DNA of 26,287 nucleotides from a virus. Lineage: Duplodnaviria > Heunggongvirae > Uroviricota > Caudoviricetes. This document shows positions 1,219-6,812 of this stretch, piece after piece (position 1 is the stretch's first letter; each line of letters begins with the position of its first letter). A program made the translations under genes and the position numbers. Under the pieces are notes generated by a model that saw nothing but the letters and a program-made list of their open reading frames with translations, was not told the origin of the DNA and did no database searches. Location of the stretch: IMG/VR virus record IMGVR_UViG_2609460221_000003, one strand, 5' to 3'.

Positions 1219-1900
1219 CCAGTATTTACAGTTTGTTCGTGAGCAACTCATGATTGCCACTGCAGATCTCAGTGGGTCGACAAAATGCCAGCTGGAAGCC
1301 TGGCAGGAAAATGCCCTGTTCGATACAGGGCGTTACAGACGCAAAAAAATTCGTTACCGCGATGAGGTAACCGGAAAAATGATCACGCGGGATAATCCCC
1401 CGATCCAGGGTAAACAATCACTGGCGAAAGGCTCATCAATTGCGCTGGTCAGTCCTGTTGAGTTTGCAACATCATCGTGGCGGCGTGCTGTTCTGGAACT
1501 GGAAGAACATCAGAAGGCGTGGTTGTTGTGGTGTTATGGCGGAAACATTTGCTGGGAGCATCAGATCGCGATAACGCAGTGGGGGTGGAGTGAATTTAAA
1601 ACTCAGTCCGGCTCCAGAAAAATTGCAGTGAAAACGCTGGAGCGTGTGAAGAAGTTGATCTGGCTGGCGGCACAGGATGTCAGAGGATGGGTTACCGGGT
1701 GTGAGGTCTACCAGAGACAGGAGCTTGCCAGACTGTGTGGAGTTAAGCCTGATAACTGGAGCCATAATTATGCGAACTACTGGCGTGAGATGTGCGATAT
1801 TTTTAAGCGCCTCGATAGAGAATCCTTGATTTGCTCCGTGAAAATAAGAGCGCAACAAAAAGCGACCTTTTCACGACGAGATATTGCAAAAGTCAATTAA
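1211..1900 (+). CDS. Late-gene antitermination protein Q-like
   Basis: 229-aa ORF; ATG 1211 overlaps rusA stop (ATGAATAA), RBS GAGGTGG 7 nt upstream. Position (after rusA, before a promoter/terminator pair and the lysis genes) is the canonical Q slot. Sequence-family assignment is from recall only. Confidence 0.6.
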   Translation: MNNQYLQFVREQLMIATADLSGSTKCQLEAWQENALFDTGRYRRKKIRYRDEVTGKMITRDNPPIQGKQSLAKGSSIALVSPVEFATSSWRRAVLELEEHQKAWLLWCYGGNICWEHQIAITQWGWSEFKTQSGSRKIAVKTLERVKKLIWLAAQDVRGWVTGCEVYQRQELARLCGVKPDNWSHNYANYWREMCDIFKRLDRESLICSVKIRAQQKATFSRRDIAKVN

Positions 1901-1925
1901 ATCGCGTATGTTTCGTATAAATCTG
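1884..1925 (+). promoter_or_regulatory. Putative late promoter (pR'-like): -35 TTGCAA (1884-1889), 17-bp spacer, -10 TATGTT (1907-1912)
   Basis: Sigma70-like hexamers with 17-bp spacing straddling the Q stop codon, followed about 50 nt later by a strong intrinsic terminator, as in lambda pR'/tR'. Confidence 0.35.
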
Positions 1926-1961
1926 ATATTTTGCCGATTTTGTACGTGATGGCAAAGTAAG

Positions 1962-1990
1962 AAAAAACCACCGCCAGGTGGTTTTTTTTA
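1962..1990 (+). terminator. Intrinsic terminator (tR'-like), bidirectional in form
   Basis: AAAAAA-CCACC-GCCA-GGTGG-TTTTTTTT: 5-bp GC stem, 4-nt loop, A-run upstream and 8-T run downstream. Confidence 0.7.
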
Positions 1991-2112
1991 TGTCCGAAAA
2001 TCGCGTCAGTACAGTAAACGCGCTGGTGGTTGCGAATACGGGTCTTTCAGCTTGCCGGCTTTTTCGACAAGAGTTATTGGTATGTCACGTTAACCGGAAA
2101 AGGGAAAAAGAC

Positions 2113-2310
2113 ATGCTAAAACAGCAGGATATGACAGAAGCCGCCAGAGTGGTGTTTAATGAATTAAGCGTTACCGACCCGGCGACAGTCAGGGAGATTG
2201 CACAGAATACTTACCTTTCACGCGAACGCTGCCAGTTAATACTGACCCAGCTTGTTATGGCGGGTCTGGCAGACTATCAGTTTGGTTGTTACAGACACCT
2301 TCAGTCCTGA
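2113..2310 (+). CDS. Small hypothetical protein (65 aa), possible helix-turn-helix; stand-alone moron unit
   Basis: ATG 2113 with AAGGGA upstream; stop TGA lies inside a perfect 7-bp hairpin followed by a T-run (2298-2322). The longer 110-aa track ORF from 1978 would start inside the tR' terminator, so the internal ATG is preferred. Confidence 0.4.
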   Translation: MLKQQDMTEAARVVFNELSVTDPATVREIAQNTYLSRERCQLILTQLVMAGLADYQFGCYRHLQS

Positions 2311-2322
2311 AGGCTTTTTTAT
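2298..2322 (+). terminator. Intrinsic terminator
   Basis: CCTTCAG-TC-CTGAAGG followed by CTTTTTTATTT. Confidence 0.6.
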
Positions 2323-2436
2323 TTGTGGTAAATGGGCGGCTGGTGGGTGTGGTGGTTGTTGCTTTCCCGTTGCTGAAAAAGAAAACGCCAGACTGTTAGC
2401 CGGGTATCAGTTAGCGGGAGAAATTTTTAAATACTT

Positions 2437-2650
2437 CACAATTCAGGCGGTTGACTGTTGTCTGGTTTGCGGGGAGTTTGTTAAAAGAAACTGGCATGGT
2501 GAATCCCCCTGTGCGGAGGGGCAATCAGCGAGTAGGTATATGGGATAATCGCGGATTCAGGTGCTGGTACTGAATTCACCGGGAGGCACCCGGCACCATG
2601 CAATGGCACATAGCGCCACTCTCCAGCCCCTCTCCGGAGGGGCTTTTCTG
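2437..2650 (+). ncRNA. Candidate structured RNA unit A (paralog of unit B), ending in an intrinsic terminator
   Basis: Shares three conserved blocks with unit B: GCATGGTGAATCCCCCTG(N)GCGGAGGGGC, CTGAA(T/C)TCACCGGGAGGCACCCGGCACCATG, and AGCCCCTCTCCGGAGGGG plus T-run. CATGGTG...CACCATG can pair as a closing stem. TTGACT box at 2451-2456. No plausible ORF. Confidence 0.3.
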
Positions 2651-2838
2651 TGCCGGATACATCACAGTTTCTGGAACCTTAGGTACTACAGTATCAGTCA
2701 GGGTGCTATATTTTCAGATGTGATGAAAGCCTGTCAGCAGGCAGGGCGTATCGGAAATGACCCAGTAGAGAAAACGTTGACTCAGATACCGGTGCTGAGT
2801 TACCGGGAAACCGGCATCACATGACCGCTATCCTTCCA

Positions 2839-2866
2839 GGCCCATCCGCTCCGGTGGGCCTTTTTA
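2839..2866 (+). terminator. Intrinsic terminator
   Basis: GGCCCA-(9-nt loop)-TGGGCC followed by TTTTT. Confidence 0.5.
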
Positions 2867-2904
2867 CTGCAGAAAACAGGTTCCCCGTTAAATGCTATGT
2901 TGCT

Positions 2905-3137
2905 CACAATTCAGTAAGTTGACAGTTGCCTGTCAGACTGGGCATTTGTTAAAAAAATTTCGCATGGTGAATCCCCCTGAGCGGAGGGGCGACTGGTGAC
3001 GGTATAATCTCTGATTATCAAAACGAGAATGACGCGGGTTTAGTGGCACCGGGCTGAACTCACCGGGAGGCACCCGGCACCATGTGCATGATGATACAGA
3101 TACGCGGCTTTAGCCCCTCTCCGGAGGGGGTTTCTTG
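2905..3137 (+). ncRNA. Candidate structured RNA unit B (paralog of unit A), ending in an intrinsic terminator
   Basis: Same three conserved blocks as unit A with a divergent central segment; TTGACA box at 2919-2924; CCCCTC-TCCG-GAGGGG hairpin plus GTTTCTT at 3114-3137. Confidence 0.3.
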
Positions 3138-3142
3138 TGGGC

Positions 3143-3171
3143 AAAAAAAGCCCGCGCTGGGAGACGCGGGC
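3143..3171 (-). terminator. Intrinsic terminator oriented for the minus strand
   Basis: A-run (3143-3149) then GCCCGCG-(8-nt loop)-CGCGGGC on the plus strand, i.e. hairpin followed by U-run on the minus strand. Confidence 0.4.
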
Positions 3172-3364
3172 GGCAAGGAATAAACAATAAAACGTGAAGT
3201 AATATTTCAGCTGGCGAATAATACCCCATAGTAATCACTCTGCGCAACTGCGCGGTCTTTTTCGAATTGCGGGCTGTCGTGTCTCTTCTGCCATTGTCCT
3301 GTAACTTCCGGACTTCAGCCCGCTCCTTATTTTACTCACAATATTATCCCGGCCGGGAGGATTC

Positions 3365-3477
3365 ATGGCATTTAAACACTATGACGTGGTCAGGGCGGTA
3401 TCGCCGTCAGACCTTGCGAAACGACTGACACAAAAACTGAAGGAGGCTGGCAGCCGTTTGGTAGTCCGGTGGCCATA
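3365..3477 (+). CDS. Out-of-frame N-terminal segment of the esterase gene (DUF1737-like leader), 37 codons
   Basis: ATG 3365 preceded by a strong RBS GGGAGGA at 6-nt spacing; translation MAFKHYDVVRAVSPSDLAKRLTQKLKEAGSRLVVRWP* ends at 3475-3477, overlapping the start of the main esterase frame. Confidence 0.45.
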
Positions 3478-5220
3478 ACCCCTTATACCCTGATGCAGGC
3501 GATTGCAGCAGAAGGTGATGTGGTGGTCAGTGGTGCAACTGAGCCGGATTGGTACTACGTCATCGTACTGGCCGGGCAGTCCAATGCCATGGCTTACGGT
3601 GAAGGGCTTCCGCTGCCGGATTCATACGATGCGCCCCATCCGCGCATTAAGCAACTGGCCCGTCGTAACACAGTGACTCCCGGTGGTGAAGTATGCGTAT
3701 TTAACGACATCATTCCTGCTGACCATTGTCTGCATGATGTTCAGGATATGAGTACGATTAACCATCCCCGGGCTGACCTGAGCAAAGGGCAGTACGGCTG
3801 TGTCGGACAGGGCTTACATATTGCCAAAAAACTGCTTCCGTATATCCCTAATAACGCGGGGATCCTGCTGGTACCATGCTGTCGTGGTGGTTCGGCATTC
3901 ACCCAGGGCACGGAGGGGACATTCAGCGAGTCCACGGGGGCCAGTCAGGATTCGGCTCGCTGGGGAGTGGGTAAGCCGTTATATCAGGATCTGCTTTTCC
4001 GCACGAAGGCAGCATTGCAGAAAAACCCGAAAAACGTTTTGCTGGCGATATGCTGGATGCAGGGGGAATTCGATATGACGAATGCCAGTTACGCCCAGCA
4101 GCCAGCAGCATTTCTTGCAATGGTACAGCAGTTCCGTGCTGACCTTGCCGGGCTGGCGGCGCAGTGTCACGGTGGAAGTCCGGCATCAGTCCCCTGGATT
4201 TGTGGCGACACGACATACGCGTGGAAACAAGAACACGGTACGCAATATGAAGTGGTATATGGTGCATATAAAGGTAAAGAATCCCAGCAGATTTATTTTG
4301 TTCCCTTTATGACCGATGGTAGCGGAGTTAATACACCGACAAACAACCCGTCAGAAGATCCTGATATTGCCGGGTCTGGTTATTACGGTTCGGCATCCCG
4401 AACGAACAAAAACTGGGTATCATCAAATCGCCCGACGCATTTCAGCTCATGGGCGCGTCGTGGCATTATTCCCGATCGTATGGCAACTGCTATTCTGAAC
4501 GTAGCCGGTCGCACCTTAGCCTTCATTAGTGGTAAGGCACCGGAAATCAAACCCTCGCCCGGCGGCGACACTCCATCGGGGCCGTCTGATGGTGACACAT
4601 CCGTTCGTACAGTCTCCCTGCTGCCGACAGCCGGAGAGGCTGCTGCGCAGGGCTGGACCATCACCGGCGGCAGTGTTGCGCTGGAAGATGGTGTGTTTAA
4701 GGTTACCAAGCAGAGCAATAAAACTTGGTCCCTGATGCATCCGGTGGATGACGCAGTCTCCCTGCTGACACGGGGTGGCAGACTGAGCTGTAAGTTTCGA
4801 CTGTCAGGCGCACTGACCAACAACCAGTTCGGTCTGGGAATTTATCTGTATACCGATGTAGCGTTACCTGACGTCGTGGCGATGACCGGGACTGGTAACC
4901 CGTTCCTGATGTCGTTCTTCACCCAGACCACAGACGGCAAACTGAATCTGATGCATCACAGGAAAGCAGGAAACACAAAGTTGGGCGAGTTCGGGAATTA
5001 CAGTAACGACTGGCAGACGCTGGAGCTGGTGTTCACCGCCGGCAGTGCCACGGTTACTCCGAAACTGAATGGAGTGGCTGGCCCGGCATTCCAGGTCATA
5101 AAAGACAGTCTGACACTGGGGCTGAATGCGCTGACGCTGACGGATATTACCAAAAATGCAGCGTATGGCGTTGAGATAGAAAGTCTGGTGCTGGAGATAA
5201 ATGCACCAGCATCATCATAA
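3469..5220 (+). CDS. Prophage sialate 9-O-acetylesterase (NanS-p-like, SGNH/SASA hydrolase with C-terminal extension)
   Basis: 583-aa ORF. The N-terminal part carries the esterase signature (VIVLAGQSNAMAYGEG; WMQGEFD). It sits in the usual NanS-p position between Q/toxin locus and holin. The true start is probably ATG 3365 in another frame (see findings). Confidence 0.8.
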   Translation: MAITPYTLMQAIAAEGDVVVSGATEPDWYYVIVLAGQSNAMAYGEGLPLPDSYDAPHPRIKQLARRNTVTPGGEVCVFNDIIPADHCLHDVQDMSTINHPRADLSKGQYGCVGQGLHIAKKLLPYIPNNAGILLVPCCRGGSAFTQGTEGTFSESTGASQDSARWGVGKPLYQDLLFRTKAALQKNPKNVLLAICWMQGEFDMTNASYAQQPAAFLAMVQQFRADLAGLAAQCHGGSPASVPWICGDTTYAWKQEHGTQYEVVYGAYKGKESQQIYFVPFMTDGSGVNTPTNNPSEDPDIAGSGYYGSASRTNKNWVSSNRPTHFSSWARRGIIPDRMATAILNVAGRTLAFISGKAPEIKPSPGGDTPSGPSDGDTSVRTVSLLPTAGEAAAQGWTITGGSVALEDGVFKVTKQSNKTWSLMHPVDDAVSLLTRGGRLSCKFRLSGALTNNQFGLGIYLYTDVALPDVVAMTGTGNPFLMSFFTQTTDGKLNLMHHRKAGNTKLGEFGNYSNDWQTLELVFTAGSATVTPKLNGVAGPAFQVIKDSLTLGLNALTLTDITKNAAYGVEIESLVLEINAPASS

Positions 5221-5370
5221 AAAGTGAGCCAGTCAAATGGAAGGTATCGTTAAACTCACCGGTAGTGTCAGTGGGTCGTCTGAGATGCCTGCATGAGTTA
5301 TCAGAGCCATCAGTACTTAACTGGTGGCTTTTTTTATTGTTGTCAGCTTCCGGATAACGGGAGACGGGGT

Positions 5371-5586
5371 ATGTACCAGATGGAAAAAATCACAACAGGT
5401 GTGTCATACACCACGTCAGCGGTGGGAACGGGCTACTGGTTCCTGCAGTTGCTGGACAGGGTTTCCCCGTCTCAGTGGGCGGCAATAGGCGTGCTGGGGA
5501 GTCTGCTGTTTGGGCTGCTGACATATCTGACTAACCTGTATTTCAAAATCAGAGAGGACCGTCGTAAGGCTGCACGGGGAGAGTAA
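5371..5586 (+). CDS. S: Holin, phage 21-type pinholin (class II, dual start)
   Basis: 71-aa product with two transmembrane segments and charged C-terminus ([13 protein letters not shown]); dual-start motif MYQMEK with ATGs at 5371 and 5380. Preceded by a hairpin plus T-run at about 5304-5336. Confidence 0.85.
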
Positions 5587-5590
5587 TTCA

Positions 5591-5935
5591 ATGACTCAAA
5601 ACTATGAACTGATTGTGAAAGGGATCCGCAATTTTGAGAATAAAGTTACGGTAACTTTAGCGTTACGGGACAAAAAACGCTTTGACGGTGAAATTTTTGA
5701 CCTGGACATCTCGCTGGACCGTGTTGAAGGTGCCGCGCTGGAGTTTTATGAGGCAGCAGCCAGAAGGAGCATCAGACAGGTCTTCCTGGATGTTGCTGCC
5801 GGGTTATGTGAAGGGGATGAGCAGTCGCCGGAAAAGCGCCCCGTAATTTTAGAGGCGCAGGATGTGTTGATAACCTACAGAGGAAAACTACCGGGAATAA
5901 TTACGGGTTCTCTGAAGAGTCCGCCGAAATGGTAA
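5591..5935 (+). CDS. Hypothetical protein (114 aa) between holin and endolysin
   Basis: ATG 5591 lies 4 nt after the holin stop (translational coupling), GGGGAGAG upstream; no recognisable family. Confidence 0.5.
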   Translation: MTQNYELIVKGIRNFENKVTVTLALRDKKRFDGEIFDLDISLDRVEGAALEFYEAAARRSIRQVFLDVAAGLCEGDEQSPEKRPVILEAQDVLITYRGKLPGIITGSLKSPPKW

Positions 5936-6173
5936 TTTTACCAGCATATTTTTCATCCAGTAATACAGCAAGCCGCCTGAAAGAGTCTTGTTGTTCCTGA
6001 GACCATTTGGGATTGCATGATTCAAACTGGATTGATGCCAGCGTTGATTGCATCTGTTCCCTTGGAATTGAGAATGCCAGATATGAGAAGGCGACGGTAA
6101 GGGTATTCACGTCTTCCCGAAGCCTGGAAATGCTGTCGAGCAACTCCTGTAGAGAAATGGTGTTATTGTCCAT
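5901..6173 (-). CDS. Hypothetical protein (90 aa), antisense to the lysis operon
   Basis: Minus-strand ATG at 6173 with RBS GAGGA 6 nt upstream; converges on and overlaps the 3' end of the 5591-5935 gene by 35 bp; no recognisable family. Confidence 0.4.
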   Translation of the reverse strand: MDNNTISLQELLDSISRLREDVNTLTVAFSYLAFSIPREQMQSTLASIQFESCNPKWSQEQQDSFRRLAVLLDEKYAGKITISADSSENP

Positions 6174-6278
6174 AAATAATCCTCATGATTGTATTGACCT
6201 GTTAGCAGCCTGAGGCAACAGGCTGGAACTGATAAACATATCCAGGGCTCAGAAACCGATAAATCCTGATAAATATCC

Positions 6279-6812
6279 ATGAACGCAAAAATCAGATACG
6301 GCCTGTCGGCTGCCGTTCTGGCGCTGATTGCCGCTGGTGCGCCTGCGCCTGACATTCTCGACCAGTTTCTGGATGAAAAGGAAGGTAACCACACCACGGC
6401 ATACCGTGATGGCGCGGGTATCTGGACCATCTGCCGCGGTGCCATCCTGGTGGATGGCAAACCTGTCGTTCCGGGCATGAAGTTGTCGAAGGAAAAATGC
6501 GACCGGGTTAACGCCATTGAGCGTGATAAGGCGCTGGCATGGGTGGAGAAAAACATCAGAGTGCCATTGAGTGAACCCCAGAAAGCGGGGATCGCGTCAT
6601 TCTGTCCGTACAACATTGGCCCCGGTAAGTGTTTTCCGTCGACGTTTTATAAACGAATTAATGCAGGTGATCGCAGGGGAGCGTGTGAGGCGATTCGCTG
6701 GTGGATTAAGGACGGTGGCAGAGACTGCCGTATTCGCTCAAATAACTGTTACGGTCAGGTATCCCGTCGTGACCAGGAGAGCGCGCTAGCGTGCTGGGGA
6801 ATCGACAGATAA
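6279..6812 (+). CDS. R: SAR endolysin (lysozyme, glycoside hydrolase family 24 / T4-lysozyme-like) with N-terminal signal-anchor-release segment
   Basis: 177 aa; Gly/Ala-rich weakly hydrophobic N-terminus (GLSAAVLALIAAGAPAP) followed by the catalytic E-x8-D-x5-T pattern (EKEGNHTTAYRDGAGIWT). Pairs with a pinholin as in phage 21. Confidence 0.85.
   Translation: MNAKIRYGLSAAVLALIAAGAPAPDILDQFLDEKEGNHTTAYRDGAGIWTICRGAILVDGKPVVPGMKLSKEKCDRVNAIERDKALAWVEKNIRVPLSEPQKAGIASFCPYNIGPGKCFPSTFYKRINAGDRRGACEAIRWWIKDGGRDCRIRSNNCYGQVSRRDQESALACWGIDR

Follow-up and report, generated by a model that had tools for sequence, protein, structure and literature searches.

What lies between the antiterminator gene Q and the sialate-esterase gene nanS-p of a lambdoid prophage, at the site equivalent to the toxin locus of Shiga toxin (Stx) phages? 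The question is raised by a stretch of 26,287 nucleotides from a virus of the class Caudoviricetes (IMG/VR record IMGVR_UViG_2609460221_000003; this whole stretch is called the window here). The original prediction, made from the sequence alone, described two units at 2437-2650 and 2905-3137, with three conserved blocks and a divergent middle, and took them for duplicated, independently terminated small-RNA (sRNA) genes of the lambdoid late region. Our analysis bears this out and supplies the missing name: units 1 and 2 are copies of the catalogued prophage sRNA family STnc100 (also named EcOnc27/sRNA103 and related to PasD). We estimate a probability of about 85% that the stretch 2425-3324 as a whole is an sRNA island at the lambdoid-prophage "moron" site, consisting of three tandem STnc100/EcOnc27/PasD paralogues on the plus strand and an unrelated convergent sRNA gene on the minus strand, and that these are independent sRNA genes acting in trans with Hfq. 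The family is already catalogued and partly characterised, and the RNA is not a new one. New from this analysis are a third, sub-threshold paralogue, the identity of the convergent partner, the rejection of an alternative pairing, and the reassortment of scaffolds and tails together with tandem arrays.

Two STnc100 genes and a diverged third copy

The window was scanned with all Rfam families, a check that the original prediction had itself proposed. Exactly two matches scored above the gathering thresholds, both to RF02076 (STnc100), both on the plus strand and both full-length. Unit 2 matches at 2933-3142 with 158.6 bits (E 5.6e-36) and unit 1 at 2465-2655 with 136.3 bits (E 2.9e-30), each over model positions 1-206. 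These scores are about three times the curated gathering score of the family (47 bits), and the E-values exclude chance for both units. Published quantitative PCR primers for STnc_100 match unit 1 exactly at 2495-2514 and 2568-2587, and the resulting amplicon of 93 bp has the published length. A covariance model of the scaffold that we built ourselves, described below, gave 111.1 bits for unit 1 and 108.3 bits for unit 2.

In an alignment of the two units the mean column identity is 81%; both ends are conserved, whereas the middle diverges and includes an indel of 15 nt. The first conserved block, GCATGGTGAATCCCCCTG(T/A)GCGGAGGGGC, is found at 2494-2522 in unit 1 and at 2962-2990 in unit 2, and the second, CTGAA(T/C)TCACCGGGAGGCACCCGGCACCATG, at 2570-2600 and 3054-3084. 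Both units end in a CCCCTCTCCGGAGGGG hairpin and a U-rich run, where the terminator scan called sites at 2625-2644 and 3114-3129. The gene of unit 1 (2494-2650, plus strand) is thus made up of a scaffold (2494-2601), a linker (2602-2624) and a terminator hairpin (2625-2644) followed by UUUUCUG. The gene of unit 2 (2962-3137, plus strand) has the same parts, namely a scaffold at 2962-3085, a linker at 3086-3113 and a terminator hairpin at 3114-3129, followed by the weak U-tract GUUUCUUG.

The prediction counted two units. Both are real, but three are present, since the spacer between them (2694-2867, plus strand) is a diverged STnc100 paralogue in which the four-helix fold was kept through compensatory changes. 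On a stretch of 261 nt and at a relaxed threshold, this middle unit gave a full-length match to RF02076 with 30.1 bits (E 4.4e-5), which is below the gathering score. Its closing helix, AUGUGAUG/CAUCACAU, differs from the GCAUGGUG/CACCAUGC helix of units 1 and 2 by changes on both sides in four of the eight pairs. The minimum free energy (MFE) fold of the middle unit, computed independently, reproduced the architecture of unit 1 (z = -2.63): an 8-bp closing helix, a short 5' hairpin, a variable stretch, an 8-bp hairpin, a hairpin of 4-5 bp, an open linker and a terminator. The scaffold occupies 2718-2822, the linker 2823-2837 and the terminator 2838-2861, followed by U5. Of 5426 complete E. 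coli genomes, 673 contain the sequence of the middle unit, the type strain DSM 30083 among them; it comes in two variants (100% and about 91% identity), and none of the matches listed among these genomes carried an annotation for it.

A covarying scaffold with exchangeable ends

The comparison with homologous loci, also suggested by the original prediction, supports the fold. A first alignment, made with MAFFT, contained 20 diverse scaffolds: the three units of the window, PasD2, and 16 scaffolds found in viral contigs by pattern search. When the pairs of the Rfam-like structure were counted in these sequences, 96.6% of the cells were paired and ten pairs had changed on both sides, compared with 37-49% paired cells for slid partners. 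We then derived a covariance model from these 20 scaffolds; with it, 128 units were detected in 100 loci, 47 of the units being distinct. In the 47 distinct scaffolds 98.8% of the cells were paired, 17 of the 26 pairs had changed on both sides, and none of 500 shuffles reached the observed values. Over both alignments, the slid-partner controls gave 36-49% paired cells. The 47-scaffold alignment was fitted to the model and therefore leans towards the structure; the slid controls and the count from the MAFFT alignment alone agree with it in direction. A multi-helix 5' domain closed by GCAUGGUG/CACCAUGC and followed by a linker and a terminator hairpin is therefore supported by covariation. In agreement with this architecture, the MFE fold of unit 1 consists of the closing helix, three inner hairpins, a mostly open linker and the terminator. 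The linker was computed to be largely unpaired in both unit 1 and the middle unit.

Two alternative long-range pairings had been proposed for the units. CATGGTG/CACCATG turned out to be a real helix with compensatory changes. The second, GGUGAAU/AUUCACC, was rejected: it showed no compensatory change, shuffles did at least as well, and 25 of 46 distinct relatives, unit 2 among them, have lost one of its pairs. A consensus computed with RNAalifold from the MAFFT alignment paired the 5' block over a long range with the GGGAGGCACC region. We set this structure aside, as it involves invariant columns only, as opposed to the paired changes of the Rfam-like fold. It was also observed that the 5' hairpin and the terminator can exchange partners through shared CCCCUC/GAGGGG arms (2506-2521 with 2627-2642 in unit 1, 2974-2989 with 3114-3129 in unit 2). 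This sharing of arms is absent from the middle unit and from PasD.

With a coverage of at least 80%, the whole 735-bp stretch was found in 353 of these 5426 complete genomes of E. coli, and strain E118 carries it at 100% identity. The route to relatives through the esterase protein yielded three loci only (E. albertii and Escherichia sp.), and diversity was taken from viral contigs. Among 119 units of the STnc100 type, the scaffold inserts fell into 15 types and the tails into 13, and these are not fixed to one another. The insert type of unit 1 occurs with seven different tails, its tail with three insert types, and the tail of unit 2 with five. Relatives can be identical up to CACCAUG and diverge directly after it. 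Promoter blocks reassort as well, as some STnc100 scaffolds have a PasD-type upstream block together with a PasD-like terminator. Tandem arrays were also observed. Four units stand in a row in one viral contig (L012, 2326-3350, minus strand) and three in each of two further loci, one of E. albertii NBRC 107761 (L006, 1147-1721, plus strand) and one other (L071, 2263-2854, minus strand). Some of the scaffolds in these three arrays are strongly diverged, with 50-80 bits. The triple of unit 1, middle unit and unit 2 is found in at least 12 other loci. PasA and PasD copies were described as distal and not tandem (Zhu et al. 2026, bioRxiv 10.64898/2026.05.13.724894), and tandem arrays may be specific to the STnc100 type.

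Reassortment and arrays are observations, and they invite a wider proposal, which we regard as tentative and somewhat doubtful. STnc100 and PasD genes could be modular cassettes in which a structurally constrained scaffold with a putative function of its own (in stabilising the RNA, binding proteins or signalling for processing) is joined by recombination, precisely where the closing helix ends, to exchangeable promoter blocks and 3' seed/terminator tails, and is set in arrays of two to four at the moron site. This would allow prophages to mix regulatory specificities and to add to their number, much in the way they mix protein modules.

These data also bear on the opposite idea, namely that the conserved blocks are remnants of a degraded protein-coding or tRNA gene, or recombinogenic repeats without a product. 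The module boundaries do fall on the conserved blocks, tRNA-Ile and tRNA-Arg genes closely precede these units in related prophages, and NCBI annotates a minus-strand pseudogene over unit 1 in several genomes. In four E. coli chromosomes (L001, L002, L003 and L005) the NCBI annotation pipeline PGAP gives no non-coding RNA and draws this pseudogene, a "hypothetical protein", across unit 1. The most plausible reading of these calls is annotation noise at the site of an RNA gene, and they probably reflect a spurious protein family seeded on the antisense strand of the sRNA gene. The tRNA-carrying prophages have the units in addition to their tRNAs and not in their place. ARAGORN detected no tRNA and no transfer-messenger RNA gene in the whole window, and a covariance scan of 1850-3400 with the tRNA families gave no match even at E up to 5; a tRNA or tmRNA remnant was therefore rejected. 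The statement that the units contain no open reading frame (ORF) does not hold literally, as mechanical ORFs of 33-87 amino acids overlap them; the three that were tested had no Pfam match, which speaks against a protein-coding reading. Moreover, the substitutions follow the logic of base pairing and not that of codons, and homologues of the units are demonstrated RNAs. The degraded coding gene and the tRNA remnant, named by the original prediction as the outcomes that would contradict it, were thus looked for and not found, and an origin of this kind is effectively excluded.

Genomic setting, convergent gene and predicted promoters

Pfam matches define the surroundings of the island. Upstream are genes for DUF968, RusA and the antiterminator Q (PF06323), and Q is separated from unit 1 by a short leader (about 1905-1991), which has a strong terminator, and by a 65-amino-acid ORF. 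The DUF1737/SASA sialate-esterase gene (nanS-p) and an S21-type holin gene follow downstream. The units therefore lie in the late region of a lambdoid prophage, 3' of Q/PR' and 5' of nanS-p and the lysis genes, an arrangement also seen in E. coli prophages and in Sp5 of strain Sakai. Sp5 is an Stx2 phage in which Q is followed by tRNAs, stx2AB, one STnc100 scaffold (L129:3952-4070), a convergent terminator at the reported position of AsxR, and ORF ECs_1207 at the position of the esterase. The Sp5 scaffold is directly 3' of stx2B and carries the same promoter block as unit 2. The prediction had described the site as toxin-equivalent and the units as standing there instead of a toxin and tRNAs. 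The window indeed has no tRNA gene, but the units do not replace the toxin: STnc100 units are regular residents of the site and coexist with the toxin in Stx phages.

A gene on the minus strand (3143-3324, terminator 3171-3150 followed by U7) faces unit 2. It aligns closely over its whole length with the sRNA E2348C_1409.E2348C_1408.IGR, which was detected by Hfq RIL-seq in enteropathogenic E. coli (EPEC); a three-way alignment that includes Sakai has 87% mean column identity. The EPEC gene lies on the minus strand of NC_011601 (1444797-1444978), and its homologues in enterohaemorrhagic E. coli (EHEC) are EcOnc08/21/42 (PMC8550237 Table S6). Judged by this alignment, the 5' end of the minus-strand gene would be near 3324, and the gene would complete, with unit 2, the known "sRNA dyad" of the lambdoid moron site. 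In eight Sakai prophages, pairs of convergent Hfq-bound sRNAs were described in the moron site downstream of PR' (Tree et al. 2014, PMC4104026). As in the AsxR-EcOnc27 and AgvB-EcOnc06 dyads of that study, an STnc100-type gene on the plus strand faces an sRNA gene on the minus strand, terminator to terminator, between PR' and the lysis genes. In the window, however, the partner is of the EcOnc08/21/42 type, and two further plus-strand units precede the dyad.

AsxR and AgvB (RF02703, RF02702) were rejected as identities of the partner, because neither family reached its gathering threshold anywhere in the window and neither matched within 1850-3400 even when E-values up to 5 were admitted. Separately, a PasA/PasC homologue in the interval from the esterase gene to the holin gene was discarded, as the PasA probe was absent and 5150-6400 gave no Rfam match. 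The minus-strand gene itself has a weak OmrA-B-like match (25.2 bits), and it runs antisense to the leader of nanS-p.

The promoter regions of unit 1 (2425-2493) and unit 2 (2893-2961), both on the plus strand, were read from the sequence and are predictions. Upstream of unit 1 we found TTGACT (2451-2456), TTGTCT (2458-2463) and TG-t-TAAAAG (2479-2487), with a predicted +1 at G2494; the corresponding elements of unit 2 are TTGACA (2919-2924), TTGCCT (2926-2931) and TG-t-TAAAAA (2947-2955), with a predicted +1 at G2962. The TTGAC(A/T) boxes announced by the original prediction are present, one base off the implied position. In most STnc100-type relatives, the block TCACAATTCAG..GTTGAC(A/T)GTTG(T/C)CTG..TTTGTTAAAA precedes the scaffold at a fixed spacing, and TTTGTTAAAA, which holds the conserved TG-extended -10, sits 6-7 bases upstream of GCAUGGUG. 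Unit 2 shares its promoter geometry with unit 1 and with the Sakai Sp5 copy 3' of stx2B. From these features we infer that TTG(T/C)CT is the -35 and the TG-extended TAAAA(A/G) the -10 element of units 1 and 2; the TTGAC(A/T) box, seven bases further upstream, may or may not be the operative -35. The middle unit has the best promoter-like element of the three, an extended -10 TGcTATATT at 2704-2712, with a predicted +1 at A2718. As estimated from its RNA-seq coverage and its size on Northern blots, PasD2 starts exactly at the homologous (C)GCAUGGUG (PMC8550237 Table S6).

Sites resembling the binding motif of the cAMP receptor protein (CRP) were also observed, both centred at -61.5 from the predicted +1: TTTTA-N6-TCACA at 2425-2440 (unit 1) and TGCTA-N6-TCACA at 2893-2908 (unit 2). 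A further match lies at L129:3883-3898. Overall, a TGTGA-N6-TCACA-like site with 8-9 of 10 matches occurs in 31 of 55 distinct STnc100-type upstream regions and is absent from PasD-type promoters; 16-mers that match the CRP motif this well make up 0.06% of all 16-mers of the window. As these upstream sequences are related by descent, the site is only a lead for possible control by cAMP-CRP.

Alternatively, the units might act mainly in cis on the phage late transcript, either as three stacked additional terminators that keep read-through in the lysogen away from nanS-p and the lysis genes, or as processing or stability elements of the Q-antiterminated mRNA, with sRNAs as by-products. All three are sense-oriented between the late leader and its terminator (about 1905-1991) and nanS-p/holin. 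The terminator scan, which called the three plus-strand terminators as well as the convergent minus-strand one, found 12 terminator-like sites in 1800-3500, compared with 2.2 expected. The promoters are weak by consensus and were not called by our scan, and a review describes the reason for such an arrangement of sRNAs as unclear (PMC7873438). A terminator, however, needs the 3' hairpin alone, so that a scaffold of 105-124 nt maintained by compensatory changes would be left unexplained, as would the conserved promoter-like block at a fixed distance. In addition, relatives are abundant as discrete RNAs in uninduced cultures, and they are bound to Hfq with mRNA partners. We therefore consider a mainly cis-acting role improbable as a replacement for independent sRNA genes, although the two roles are compatible and could coexist.

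Several further observations concern the flanks of the island. The leader at 1905-1991 (plus strand) ends in a strong bidirectional terminator (1962-1987) and has weak sub-threshold Rfam matches to isrK (19.4 bits) and Phe_leader (28.3 bits); it probably represents the PR' short transcript/tR', the site that gives rise to StxS in Stx phages. The 65-amino-acid ORF (2113-2310, plus strand), a "hypothetical protein" in related prophages, has its own terminator (2298-2313) and a weak winged-helix (TrmB-like) match below the Pfam cut-off (E 9e-4). High-identity similarity to other prophages starts at 2341, inside a 43-amino-acid DUF3927 gene of E. coli strain 2D. Just the 3' end of that gene appears to be left here (about 2341-2399, plus strand), which suggests a recombination joint right upstream of unit 1. 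On the other side, nanS-p (3365-5220) is split near 3445 by a 1-nt deletion in a G run, compared with the otherwise 99.9% identical E. coli E118, into a 37-amino-acid DUF1737 fragment (3365-3478) and a 583-amino-acid SASA/DUF6645 ORF (3469-5220). The split could be a real pseudogene or a homopolymer sequencing error.

Proposed function of the RNAs and significance of the island

By analogy with their relatives, a mode of action can be proposed for the units. Most likely, each plus-strand unit is an independent gene with its own sigma-70 promoter, from which transcription would start with the first nucleotide of GCAUGGUG, or of AUGUGAUG in the case of the middle unit. Each gene would end at its own intrinsic terminator, giving predicted RNAs of 157 nt (unit 1), 150 nt (middle unit) and 176 nt (unit 2). 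The 5' part of the RNA would form a scaffold of 105-124 nt, with an 8-bp closing helix around a short hairpin, a variable insert, an 8-bp hairpin and a hairpin of 4-5 bp. The 3' part would be a tail consisting of a largely unpaired linker of 15-28 nt, the terminator hairpin and the U-run. As proposed from PasD and EcOnc27, the RNAs most likely associate with Hfq in the lysogen and regulate, by base pairing in trans, mRNAs of the host as well as of the prophage; both properties are thus taken over from these analogues. The linker would carry the seed, as in PasD, and the scaffold would provide stability or another shared property. Because the linkers of the three units differ completely, three different sets of targets would be expected.

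The relatives provide the experimental background. The EHEC strain EDL933 has 11 STnc100 copies, all with RNA-seq reads, and one of them, STnc100_4, was confirmed by Northern blot (PMC5331693). In Sp5, the pair 3' of stx2B consists of EcOnc27 (sense) and AsxR (antisense), and EcOnc27 was crosslinked to Hfq (Hfq-CRAC) (PMC4104026). EcOnc27 is the same RNA as sRNA103, which was detected by Northern blot (PMC7873438), and its overexpression raises the fimZ and espA transcripts by an unexplained route (PMC7873438; PMC12711010). A machine-learning study counted sequence variants inside the stx2B-adjacent copy among the genomic features that predict haemolytic uraemic syndrome most strongly (PMC12711010). 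STnc_100 was detected in outer-membrane vesicles of Shiga toxin-producing E. coli in the study that published the primers matching unit 1 (PMC12370729). Units 1 and 2 agree with STnc100/EcOnc27/sRNA103 in the full-length family match, the fold, the position 3' of the moron cargo and 5' of nanS-p, and the neighbouring convergent sRNA. They differ from the Sp5 copy in that the window carries no stx and has three tandem units instead of one, and in their linker/terminator tails.

PasD1 and PasD2 of EPEC are abundant, Northern-validated, Hfq-associated sRNAs whose RIL-seq partners were mapped (PMC8550237), and they were recognised as structural homologues of STnc100 (Zhu et al. 2026). On Hfq, PasD relatives contact LEE, bfp and core-metabolism mRNAs. 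The predicted seed of PasD, UGUGAG, lies just 5' of the terminator, and the partner mRNAs share a motif complementary to the linker (PMC8550237). With PasD1/PasD2 (EPEC E2348/69; EHEC homologue EcOnc13) the window units share the 5' block GCAUGGUGAAUCC, the closing helix, the central 8-bp hairpin and the site just upstream of the esterase gene. PasD2 reached 41.4 bits on RF02076. Unlike the window units, PasD has no CCGGG/CCCGG hairpin, its promoter block is a different one that lacks TCACA, and its tail contains the UGUGAG seed and a GGCUGCGC terminator. The PasD tail probe region CCUUGUGAGUUCUGGCUGCGCAUG had no match in the window at up to three mismatches, and the tails of all three units differ from it.

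Adjacent paralogous sRNAs with separate promoters and terminators, in which one part is conserved and another differs, are also found in OmrA/OmrB and PrrF1/PrrF2. In OmrA/B the conserved 5' end is the seed, whereas the window units conserve a structured scaffold and vary in the putative seed region.

Several points weigh against independent, trans-acting sRNA genes at this locus. A generic sigma-70 consensus scan called no plus-strand promoter here, the -10 elements TAAAAG and TAAAAA of units 1 and 2 are weak, and the U-tract of unit 2 (GUUUCUUG) is poor. The single-fold z-scores are modest (-1.8 for unit 1, -2.6 for the middle unit and -1.5 for unit 2). The full-length MFE fold of unit 2 is an alternative long-range fold of -65.9 kcal/mol; with the family fold enforced as a constraint, -60.6 kcal/mol was obtained, a gap of 5.3 kcal/mol. 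The long-range fold is the optimum because the 5' hairpin and the terminator share CCCCUC/GAGGGG arms. The evidence for transcripts and for Hfq binding comes from homologues, and not from the window locus or the middle unit. Even in relatives, Hfq dependence of stability is not clear-cut, since the abundance of PasD in RNA-seq of an hfq mutant was not clearly lower (log2 fold changes of +0.55 and -0.18 under activating conditions; PMC8550237). For STnc100 itself, no direct target has been validated for any copy, and fimZ and espA are overexpression effects (PMC7873438; PMC12711010). Finally, the conserved part is the structured 5' domain and the presumed seed is variable, which is the reverse of most Hfq sRNAs; the scaffold may hold a further function.

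This last point leads to a different explanation, in which the 5' scaffold itself is the active part, either as an RNA that binds or titrates a protein (for example an RNase, a chaperone, or a regulator of phage or host origin) or as a stabilising platform for exchanged tails, and pairing by the linker is secondary or absent. The conservation of sequence and structure is concentrated in the scaffold, tails are swapped freely, the loop and junction sequences GAAU, UGUGCG and AGGCA are nearly invariant in the STnc100 type, and the literature offers no validated direct mRNA target of STnc100. PasD shares the scaffold, yet it has many RIL-seq mRNA partners, and their common motif is complementary to the PasD linker. 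Strict sequence-specific recognition is also disfavoured by the middle unit and PasD, in which the helices are kept while the loop sequences have changed, and Hfq is the only protein partner known. We consider an active scaffold slightly less probable again than a mainly cis-acting role, and we continue to favour Hfq-associated RNAs that would pair with their targets through the linker.

For the window itself, the practical value of these results lies in annotation. Four sRNA genes occupy about 900 bp for which the NCBI annotation gives either nothing or a pseudogene, and one of the four escapes current Rfam thresholds. The STnc100 family is relevant to pathogenic E. coli, as one copy lies immediately 3' of stx2B. 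The island is no new kind of system; the reassortment of scaffolds and tails and the arrays of up to four units provide a modest handle on how prophage sRNAs diversify.

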